From the IMG/VR virus record IMGVR_UViG_2690315742_000009, positions 1 through 16,435 of that record: DNA of 16,435 nt, one strand, 5' to 3'. The notes beneath the pieces are model-generated. The model made no database searches. It was given only the letters and a program-made list of their open reading frames with translations, and was not told where the DNA came from. This DNA comes from a virus. Taxonomy: Duplodnaviria; Heunggongvirae; Uroviricota; Caudoviricetes. The position numbers and the translations under genes are program-made. Below are positions 14,393-14,740 of the stretch, one piece after another (positions within the stretch are counted from its first letter, which is position 1; every line of letters starts with the position of its first letter).

Positions 14393-14421
14393 TTGCAACA
14401 TTGATTTCGTAACGTTATTAT
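14393..14421 (+). promoter_or_regulatory. Strong sigma70-type promoter of the tRNA array
   Basis: TTGCAA (14393-14398), 17-nt spacer, TATTAT (14416-14421), followed by a GC-rich discriminator (CCTGCGCCC) and the first tRNA 9 nt downstream. Confidence 0.55.
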
Positions 14422-14430
14422 CCTGCGCCC

Positions 14431-14506
14431 GGCCCTTTAGCTCAGTGGTGAGAGCGAGCGACTCATAATCGCCAGGTCGCTGGTTCAAATCCAGCAAGGG
14501 CCACCA
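14431..14506 (+). tRNA. tRNA with CAU anticodon (Ile2-lysidine type or elongator Met)
   Basis: Hand-folded cloverleaf: acceptor GGCCCTT/AAGGGCC, D-stem GCTC/GAGC, anticodon loop CTCATAA, T-loop TTCAAAT, encoded CCA. Close to E. coli ileX as recalled. Confidence 0.8.
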
Positions 14507-14507
14507 G

Positions 14508-14584
14508 CCGCCACTAGCTCATCAGGAAAGAGCGTCAACCCTTTAAGTTGAGTGTGCGAGGTTCGAGTCCCCGGTGGCGGTCCA
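14508..14584 (+). tRNA. tRNA-like gene with unusual anticodon loop CCTTTAA (nominal anticodon UUU, Lys-type; C at position 33)
   Basis: Cloverleaf folds: acceptor CCGCCAC/GTGGCGG, D-stem GCTC/GAGC, perfect anticodon stem TCAAC/GTTGA, T-loop TTCGAGT, encoded CCA. T-stem has one A-C mismatch and position 33 is C, not the near-universal U. Confidence 0.55.
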
Positions 14585-14586
14585 GT

Positions 14587-14662
14587 GCCGACTTAGCTCA
14601 GTAGGTAGAGCAACTGACTTGTAATCAGTAGGTCACCAGTTCGATTCCGGTAGTCGGCACCA
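14587..14662 (+). tRNA. tRNA-Thr (UGU)
   Basis: Acceptor GCCGACT/AGTCGGC, anticodon stem ACTGA/TCAGT, loop CTTGTAA, T-loop TTCGATT, encoded CCA; one A-C mismatch in the T-stem. Resembles E. coli thrU. Confidence 0.7.
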
Positions 14663-14665
14663 TAT

Positions 14666-14740
14666 GCGGGCATCGTATAATGGCTATTACCTCAGCCTTC
14701 CAAGCTGATGATGCGGGTTCGATTCCCGCTGCCCGCTCCA
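14666..14740 (+). tRNA. tRNA-Gly (UCC)
   Basis: Acceptor GCGGGCA/TGCCCGC, anticodon loop CTTCCAA, T-loop TTCGATT, encoded CCA. Matches E. coli glyT-type tRNA-Gly as recalled. Confidence 0.8.

Follow-up and report, generated by a model that had tools for sequence, protein, structure and literature searches.

We conclude that the four tRNA genes at positions 14431-14740 of a 16,435-nucleotide stretch of viral DNA (IMG/VR record IMGVR_UViG_2690315742_000009, positions 1 to 16,435; hereafter, the window) form a tRNA module of a kind already known, and that the second of the four has an unusual ancestry. The window is an Escherichia coli lambdoid (Qin-like) prophage. With high confidence, we assign the locus to the lambdoid tRNA module that lies between the antiterminator gene Q, with its promoter pR' and terminator tR', and the lysis genes; the module would be driven by a promoter of its own, pT, and would supply decoders of the codons AUA, ACA, and GGA. 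The same high confidence extends to this assignment taken jointly with a second one, namely that the second gene (tRNA 2) is an allele of the tRNA-Arg(UCU) found in the second slot of the module, apparently remoulded by two linked changes, U33C and C35U. The array itself is confirmed, and modules of its kind are already annotated in hundreds of genomes. Its informative part is tRNA 2, which is, judged by sequence comparison, a widespread two-mutation derivative of tRNA-Arg(UCU) with the anticodon UUU and a cytidine at position 33 (C33). We found no description of this variant in the searchable literature, the coverage of which is incomplete.

Exactly four tRNAs are found by ARAGORN in the whole window: tRNA 1, a tRNA-Ile2(CAU), at 14431-14506; tRNA 2 at 14508-14584; tRNA 3, a tRNA-Thr(UGU), at 14587-14662; and tRNA 4, a tRNA-Gly(UCC), at 14666-14740. 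All lie on the plus strand, as do the other features located below by window coordinates unless stated otherwise. The spacers are of 1 nucleotide (G), 2 nucleotides (GT), and 3 nucleotides (TAT), so the tight packing described in an initial annotation of the sequence is confirmed. With the Rfam tRNA model, tRNAs 1 to 4 score 72.5, 44.4, 73.8, and 64.9 bits, all above the gathering score of 29. The PGAP names for the four, in those exact copies that were listed, are tRNA-Ile, tRNA-Lys, tRNA-Thr, and tRNA-Gly.

The anticodon arm of tRNA 2 reads UCAAC / C32 C33 U34 U35 U36 A37 A38 / GUUGA, which bears out the C33 and the loop CCUUUAA noted in the initial annotation. The stem has 5 bp and is fully Watson-Crick, the loop has 7 nucleotides, and A37, A38, and the encoded CCA are intact. 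A shifted stem, or a loop of 8-9 nucleotides with another anticodon, is ruled out by this stem and loop. The clean cloverleaf that had also been described holds as far as the tRNA-like fold goes; the T stem contains an A51xC63 mismatch. Minimum-free-energy folding does not return a cloverleaf for tRNA 2 (z = -1.46), nor does it for argN or host thrU, so it is uninformative here. At 44.4 bits, the gene lies clear of the Rfam gathering score of 29, and for the present allele the suspicion that a covariance model might reject it or reassign its anticodon is not borne out, as the Rfam model and PGAP accept it as a tRNA with the anticodon UUU. The argN gene itself scores only 43.0 bits in Rfam, and the low score of tRNA 2 relative to typical tRNAs is therefore largely a property of their common scaffold.

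This scaffold is distinctive. tRNA 2 is identical to argN of Stx2a_F349 at 65 of 77 positions and to the "tRNA-Lys" of PPompW phages at 75 of 77, and it has the odd features of argN: C1-G72, U73, U15/G48, and A51xC63. It also fits the scaffold when this is defined by C1-G72, a CCGCCAY acceptor stem, A20 in the D loop, an anticodon stem UCAAC/GUUGA or UCAGC/GCUGG, and an encoded CCA. C35 is the dominant identity element for arginyl-tRNA synthetase (ArgRS). In tRNA 2, this element is missing (U35).

Across E. coli genomes and IMG/VR contigs, the module has in its second slot scaffold tRNAs with the anticodon UCG (the type of phage 933W), UCU, or UUU. The UCU form occurs in modules of the order Ile2-Arg(UCU)-Thr-Gly, in NZ_CP182387 (our locus L153) and in most of 100 IMG/VR loci, 61 of which show all four genes and several more of which are cut off by contig ends. 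These tRNA-Arg(UCU) relatives share the anticodon stem UCAAC/GUUGA with tRNA 2; their loop is the canonical CUUCUAA, their T stem is paired throughout, and the two copies scored reach 57.8 and 55.6 bits. The acceptor stems vary between alleles yet stay paired (C4-G69 in one, U4-A69 in another). Between their loop and that of tRNA 2, the difference amounts to exactly two transitions, U33C and C35U (CUUCUAA to CCUUUAA). Among IMG/VR scaffold genes, at least 90 combine U33 with UCU and at least 113 combine C33 with UUU, and there is none with U33 and UUU and none with C33 and UCU, i.e., no intermediates were found. It is on these grounds that we regard tRNA 2 as a two-mutation derivative (U33C plus C35U) of tRNA-Arg(UCU), an origin that the initial annotation missed in calling its decoding identity uncertain. 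The ancestral four-gene set, with decoders of AUA, AGA, ACA, and GGA, is a coherent rare-codon kit.

A second shift to a lysine anticodon is seen elsewhere in the same module. Two IMG/VR loci of the order Ile2-Arg(UCU)-X-Gly (L192, positions 5307-5379, minus strand, from 2645727676_000004, and L241) have a thrU-derived third gene with the anticodon UUU (G35U plus A26G; 74.2 bits), and, from its sequence, this change is independent of that in tRNA 2. More distant relatives of the scaffold are found in Yersinia phage YeP1 (L004, 1501-1575), with the loop CAUUGCC (A33, C37) and the annotation "tRNA-Pseudo-TTG," and in Kosakonia sacchari (L015, 4143-4220), where ARAGORN calls a tRNA-SeC(tca) of 36 bits that overlaps the end of a cspA thermoregulator match. 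The argN-type scaffold seems prone to anticodon-loop change across Enterobacterales.

The remaining genes of the array have closer counterparts. tRNA 1 is identical to ileZ of Stx phages (76/76) and matches host ileX at 68/76 positions (89%) and metT at 54/78 (69%). It has C4-G69 and C5-G68, which we take to be determinants for TilS. By these comparisons it is a tRNA-Ile2 and not a Met tRNA, presumably lysidine modified to read AUA. PGAP labels the CAU gene tRNA-Ile, most of the listed phage records have it as tRNA-Met, and annotation of the module is inconsistent in other respects too: in ON470580 and ON470583, a 100% identical homologue of tRNA 2 has no annotated feature, whereas RefSeq/PGAP calls the same sequence tRNA-Lys, and the homologue in phage Evi (LR597642; 96.1% identical) likewise has none. 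tRNAs 3 and 4 reproduce the mature host tRNAs thrU and glyT without a mismatch (76/76 and 75/75 against K-12). The identity runs from nucleotide 1 to the terminal CCA, and there is no homology in the flanks when they are compared with the K-12 thrU-tyrU-glyT-thrT locus (L006), which suggests that tRNA sequence of mature length was captured, and not a piece of the chromosome. In the host, thrU and glyT are separated by tyrU and a 116-nucleotide spacer; the prophage copies are 3 nucleotides apart. Among IMG/VR arrays, one glyT allele has a compensated pair (C6U plus G67A), and there are 11 identical copies and one further variant. A few thrU copies (L154, 580-655, and L194) have the 3' strand of the anticodon stem changed from UCAGU to UCAUC or UCACC, which breaks the CAG motif and shortens the stem, the type of change reported to give resistance to P2-OLD.

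The initial annotation had set this array apart from the ileZ-argN-argO trio of Stx-type phages, and this view has to be given up. Neither the second nor the third gene is a tRNA-Arg gene here (in the trio, argN with UCG and argO with UCU). The module is nevertheless a version of the same one, as tRNA 1 is ileZ at 76/76 positions, tRNA 2 stands on the argN scaffold at 65/77, and the promoter is pT. The promoter described upstream of the array is present: TTGCAA-17-TATTAT at 14393-14421, followed by the G+C-rich discriminator CCTGCGCCC, for an element that spans 14393-14430 and whose promoter end lies 9 nucleotides before tRNA 1. The hexamers match at 9/12 positions; 1.4 kb of sequence contains four such matches, this one included, versus 1.6 expected by chance. 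The promoter is supported by its conservation and not by the hexamer match itself. Hexamers, spacer, and discriminator are conserved in an alignment of 933W, phi191, phi296, Stx2a_F349, PPompW, and Evi, the sequence further upstream is unrelated, and the 933W record (AF125520) annotates the same element as "pT; putative tRNA promoter." The array promoter is, on this alignment, a known and conserved feature of the ileZ-argN-argO module. We infer that pT is active; any stringent control, which the initial annotation read from the discriminator, is likewise putative.

The UUU/C33 allele is widespread. In 5,426 complete E. coli genomes, the best match in 751 records (about 14%) is a copy at least 95% identical to tRNA 2, the scaffold family is present in 2,132 genomes, and the 421-nucleotide array region is found at 80% coverage or more in 553. 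In IMG/VR arrays, the allele occurs in two architectures, beside Thr-Gly or beside argO. When the flanks are clustered, it falls in at least 10 clusters upstream and at least 7 downstream, some of which also hold the Arg(UCU) allele; it predominates over the latter by 70 to 7 in the main flank cluster. It is also carried by the isolated phages vB_EcoS-689R5, vB_EcoM-606R7, PhiR47_1, and Evi. In at least 113 copies, C33-U34-U35-U36-A37-A38 is invariant and position 32 varies. C33 itself is rare: none of the roughly 229 distinct, unselected tRNA sequences from all the loci that we fetched has it. When A, C, or G was allowed at position 33 in a scan for one stem type, every tRNA match had C. C33 also occurs in otherwise high-scoring (60-70 bits) environmental phage tRNAs in IMG/VR: Thr(UGU) with the loop CCUGUAA, Gly(UCC), Arg(CCU), and Val(GAC) (L141, L142, L144/L148, and L145/L147/L150).

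Codon usage accounts for most of the array. The comparison with the host that the initial annotation had proposed was made between the prophage genes, taken as the coding sequences annotated in L001, the identical stretch of E. coli strain 165, and 41 K-12 genes, and it supports three of the four tRNAs. AUA (odds ratio, 3.0-5.0), ACA (2.2-4.2), and GGA (3.1-3.3) are enriched in prophage genes, each with p < 1e-4, whereas AAA is not (share of 0.73 in early and 0.66 in late genes versus 0.74 in the host). Codon supplementation explains tRNAs 1, 3, and 4 and would do the same for the ancestral Arg(UCU), but not for a tRNA-Lys(UUU). Codon compensation is ruled out as the reason for tRNA 2, as AAA is not enriched.

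As to what tRNA 2 does, we tentatively favor, at somewhat less than an even chance, a working lysine decoder that is insensitive to the tRNA-cutting systems PARIS, P2-OLD, and PrrC. In the lysogen, the array would be transcribed from the conserved pT, and after induction, Q-modified RNA polymerase that reads through tR' would transcribe it as well. RNase P would cut the polycistronic transcript at each 5' end, and the trailers of 1-3 nucleotides would be trimmed to the encoded CCA. The change C35U would remove the main ArgRS identity element and create the UUU anticodon read by lysyl-tRNA synthetase (LysRS). By anticodon identity rules, tRNA 2 would then most likely be charged with lysine and read AAA and AAG, without mistranslation. 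E. coli tRNA-Lys is not in shortage, and the likely value of the gene would lie in a spare tRNA-Lys beyond recognition by tRNA-cutting defenses.

The published determinants of these nucleases make such an escape plausible. AriB, the PARIS nuclease, targets Lys(UUU), Thr(UGU), and Asn(GUU) tRNAs and needs the context U36-A-A-U39-C40|A41 together with U16; cleavage is lost with U39A and impaired with A41C or U16C (PMC12409363). The tRNAs cut by P2-OLD are those with paired CNG motifs in their anticodon stem, and the tRNA-Thr of phage 21 protects against this nuclease, whereas host thrU does not (PMC12445682). PrrC cuts 3' of U33 (PMC2610378) and is stated to require cyclic N6-threonylcarbamoyladenosine at position 37 (ct6A37) (PMC12409363), and formation of N6-threonylcarbamoyladenosine (t6A) by E. 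coli TsaBCDE on E. coli tRNAMet(i) is abolished by U33C (PMC8887486). tRNA 2 has the UUU anticodon of the prime AriB and PrrC target on a different body: C16, G39, U40, and U41 stand in place of U16, U39, C40, and A41, the stem has CAA/UUG and no paired CNG motifs, and C33 replaces the nucleotide 3' of which PrrC cuts. From its sequence, tRNA 2 should escape AriB and P2-OLD, and by analogy with the tRNAs studied, it should be free of t6A37 and a poor substrate for PrrC. Other lambdoid phages have Asn(GUU) and Thr(UGU) tRNAs in the same slot, and for Asn there is no codon-usage reason (PMC3636060). Less probable, and in our view rather unlikely, is the further step that U33C was itself adaptive, blocking t6A37 and ct6A37 and changing the PrrC scissile site on a body unreadable by AriB and P2-OLD, with a tRNA-Lys proof against several nucleases as the result. 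If so, this tRNA would serve lambdoid prophages against abortive-infection systems that are P2/P4-borne or linked to restriction, and C33 in phage Thr(UGU), Arg(CCU), Gly(UCC), and Val(GAC) tRNAs would mark a general evasion of nucleases via evasion of modification.

Several considerations weigh against a nuclease-insensitive lysine decoder. Differences at the nuclease determinants are automatic for any tRNA of unrelated ancestry and are therefore no sign of selection; the perfect linkage of U33C with C35U would equally result from common descent alone. Either loop change is damaging to the function of the ancestral tRNA. A tRNA-Lys(UUU) without t6A37 binds codons poorly, and C33 may thus cripple decoding. 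tRNA 2 has U73 as the discriminator, and LysRS prefers A73. The PARIS-resistant tRNA-Lys of T5 keeps U33, so C33 is not needed for escape from PARIS, and a need of this kind is ruled out. The adjacent thrU copy has the host sequence, which gives little or no protection against P2-OLD (PMC12445682); as it is identical to the host gene, a role for it as an anti-OLD or anti-PARIS tRNA is ruled out as well. Arginine codons also remain in demand, with AGA, AGG, CGA, and CGG about 1.7-8 fold over-used in the prophage genes though the Arg decoder is gone (for CGA in late genes, the excess is only 1.7 fold, p = 0.06).

The last point also speaks for a different account, to which we give a substantial chance, again short of even: that tRNA 2 is a decaying relic of tRNA-Arg(UCU) that hitchhikes between useful genes in a freely recombining module. 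C35U would have cost it arginine identity, U33C the U-turn and t6A, and U63C a T-stem pair. AGA and AGG, the codons of the lost decoder, are still over-used, and E. coli already has several genes of the lysT family (five within the host stretch that we fetched). With its two loop changes and A51xC63, tRNA 2 scores 11-13 bits below its Arg(UCU) relatives (44.4 versus 57.8 and 55.6). Further likely damage is seen in about a quarter of the copies listed (a deletion of U12, found in PPompW types, in 14/113 and U8C in 17/113), the variants of PPompW and L154 fall below the Rfam gathering score, and variants of 96-97% identity have no PGAP tRNA call. The scaffold genes of YeP1 and Kosakonia are clearly degenerate, and the absence of C33 from the unselected tRNA sequences points the same way. 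At 0.010-0.012, tRNA 2 has the same nucleotide diversity as the noncoding DNA next to it (0.014) and is about 10 times as diverse as ileZ (0.0009). However, the bona fide functional thrU and glyT copies are similarly diverse (0.009-0.010 and 0.006-0.007), with similar allele numbers, and therefore this yardstick, which draws on only 28 haplotypes, does not discriminate a functional gene from a relic. Decay also sits uneasily with the success of the allele. UUU/C33 is at least as frequent in IMG/VR as Arg(UCU) on the same stem (more than 113 versus about 90 in a full listing), it leads in the main flank cluster even though intact alleles could evidently replace it by recombination, and phages isolated as virions have it. 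The anticodon stem with its five pairs, the 7-nucleotide loop, A37, A38, and the CCA are preserved, stem changes among alleles are pair preserving, mostly C to U, in 6 cases and disruptive in 3 (a count of only 6 versus 3 events, too small to tell a functional gene from a relic), and otherwise excellent phage tRNAs have C33 too. The two accounts, of a lysine decoder and of a relic, lie close to each other, and the available computations could not separate them.

Three further explanations are less probable than either of these. tRNA 2 might be an ordinary extra tRNA-Lys for late expression, with C33 tolerated as a neutral change and no link to defense, and we consider this improbable. Lysine codons make up 55-57 per 1000 in the prophage genes versus 46 in the host sample, and the second UUU, on the thrU copy, keeps an AriB-sensitive arm, which fits a demand for lysine better than escape from nucleases. 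Yeast tRNAs with substitutions of U33 retained activity in vitro. The share of AAA is not raised, though, the host has several tRNA-Lys(UUU) genes of its own, one weak and probably hypomodified copy would add little, and the strict linkage of C33 with UUU would be left unexplained. Still harder to credit, at a very low probability, is a decoy outside translation, i.e., a competitive inhibitor of nucleases or modification enzymes directed at tRNA-Lys. Competition by over-expressed viral tRNAs was raised as a possibility for AriB in the PARIS study (PMC12409363), and tRNA 2 retains U34-U35-U36-A37-A38, the segment read by PrrC-type enzymes; against this, it lacks the AriB contact positions (C16, G39-U41), so poor binding to AriB is expected, a phage tRNA-Thr did not protect host tRNA in the P2-OLD study (PMC12445682), and lambdoid phages offer no precedent. 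The least probable of all is a nonstandard decoder, either charged with arginine at lysine codons or acting as a frameshift or ochre-type suppressor (U35-U36-A37 = UUA). tRNA 2 does retain A20 of the arginine identity set, and an abnormal position 33 could in principle alter the geometry of the loop, but C35, the dominant element for ArgRS, is lost, the 7-nucleotide loop is standard and sits on a fully Watson-Crick 5-bp stem, and nothing in the window suggests a recoding target.

The surroundings of the array match those of other lambdoid phages. The antiterminator Q gene (13547-14236) is an open reading frame ending at 14236, annotated by PGAP in the identical region of strain 165 (L001, 15168-15857; offset, 1621). 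A promoter scan places a putative pR'-like late promoter, TTGCAA-17-TATATT, at 14220-14248, overlapping the end of Q, and the 933W record annotates "pR'; putative late promoter" at the matching position. It is followed at 14294-14329 by a tR'-like intrinsic terminator, identified as an inverted repeat and scan match, with the hairpin AAAACCCGC/GCGGGTTTT and then a T run (fold, -13.1 kcal/mol; z = -2.4); terminators are annotated at the equivalent place in 933W. The pR'-like promoter and the tR'-like terminator, about 70 nucleotides downstream, form the short constitutive late-leader layout typical of lambdoid phages. With these elements just upstream, Q-antiterminated late transcription should also traverse the array, and read-through from pR' is, by analogy with the 933W layout, a likely additional source of transcript; the array, for which the initial annotation described its own promoter, would thus not depend on that promoter alone.

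Directly after the array, at 14747-14792, lies a strong hairpin with an 11-nucleotide perfect inverted repeat (-23.8 kcal/mol; z = -4.75; none of 200 shuffles equally stable), a possible site of 3' processing or termination; in 933W, a terminator is annotated after argO. A second hairpin, at 14800-14872 (-29.0 kcal/mol; z = -5.76), overlaps the start of an unannotated open reading frame of 78 amino acids (14802-15038). Both hairpins fall in the stretch of about 290 nucleotides that separates the array from the holin gene and is free of PGAP annotation, and neither has a match in Rfam. The class II holin gene (15035-15250; an open reading frame with the PGAP annotation of L001) starts the lysis cassette of holin, a YdfR-family gene, and lysozyme, so that the array is placed between the Q gene and this cassette. 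Elsewhere in the window are the DicF small RNA (4505-4556, minus strand; 76.7 bits) and the sok/hokD type I toxin-antitoxin locus (11363-11534, plus strand; 106.7 bits), both standard cargo of Qin/Rac-type prophages.

The locus matters because large lytic phages, such as T5 and T4, have so far been the main setting for work on tRNA-cutting defenses (PrrC, PARIS, P2-OLD, and retron effectors) and on the viral tRNAs that counter them. The tRNA described here belongs to a temperate phage, has the anticodon of the most frequently targeted tRNA, and is present in about one in seven sequenced E. coli genomes. If tRNA 2 works, a phage has made a nuclease-proof tRNA cheaply, an antidote to abortive infection is built into many E. 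coli lysogens, and the otherwise very rare C33 gains a concrete role. If it is dead, pipelines are labeling a tRNA pseudogene, and a clean example of one, as a normal tRNA-Lys in hundreds of genomes. In either case, the CAU gene is to be read as Ile2 and not as Met.

Among known systems, the ileZ-argN-argO module of 933W (AF125520) is the standard of comparison. The order of the slot is the same (Q, pR', tR', tRNAs, and late genes), as are pT with its discriminator and the first gene, ileZ, and the second gene stands on the same unusual scaffold (C1-G72, U73, and encoded CCA). The second tRNA of 933W, however, has UCG and U33, whereas the one described here has UUU and C33; the third gene, argO, is replaced here by copies of host thrU and glyT; the spacers are of 9-13 nucleotides there and 1-3 here; and lysis genes, not stx, follow the array. 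The Ile2-Arg(UCU)-Thr-Gly modules (L153 and about 65 IMG/VR contigs) resemble the array in architecture, spacers, second-tRNA scaffold, and anticodon stem and differ in the second tRNA, with CUUCUAA, a paired T stem, and 55.6-57.8 bits in place of CCUUUAA, A51xC63, and 44.4 bits. Phages 21, SfI, Sf6, and ST64T have tRNAs downstream of Q (Asn GUU and/or Thr UGU; PMC3636060), i.e., in the same slot and with anticodons targeted by AriB or P2-OLD. Their Thr tRNAs have diverged from thrU and are cleavage resistant, whereas the Thr gene here is identical to host thrU, the nonprotective sequence.

The tRNA-Lys(UUU) of T5 (PMC11464382, PMC12409363) is likewise phage borne, has the anticodon targeted by AriB, and is unlike host tRNA-Lys at positions 16, 39, and 41. 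It is a recognizable tRNA-Lys with U33 and A73 for which AriB resistance and rescue of infection have been shown, whereas tRNA 2 is Arg derived, has C33 and U73, and is resistant by prediction. The host lysT family has UUU, A37, A38, and C32 in common with tRNA 2 but is not among its seven best matches (less than 63% identity); tRNA 2 differs from lysT in having C33 and not U33, U73 and not A73, and C1-G72 and not G1-C72, as well as in the anticodon stem and the D loop. C33 beside an A37 that is normally t6A modified is also found in the initiator tRNAs of multicellular eukaryotes, and C33 is an antideterminant for the bacterial and yeast t6A enzymes (PMC8887486); those tRNAs are initiators, whereas tRNA 2 is an elongator-type tRNA of a bacterial virus. 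Finally, the probable history of tRNA 2 has its parallel in the alloacceptor anticodon shifts known as tRNA remoulding, in which amino acid identity likewise changes through point mutation of the anticodon.

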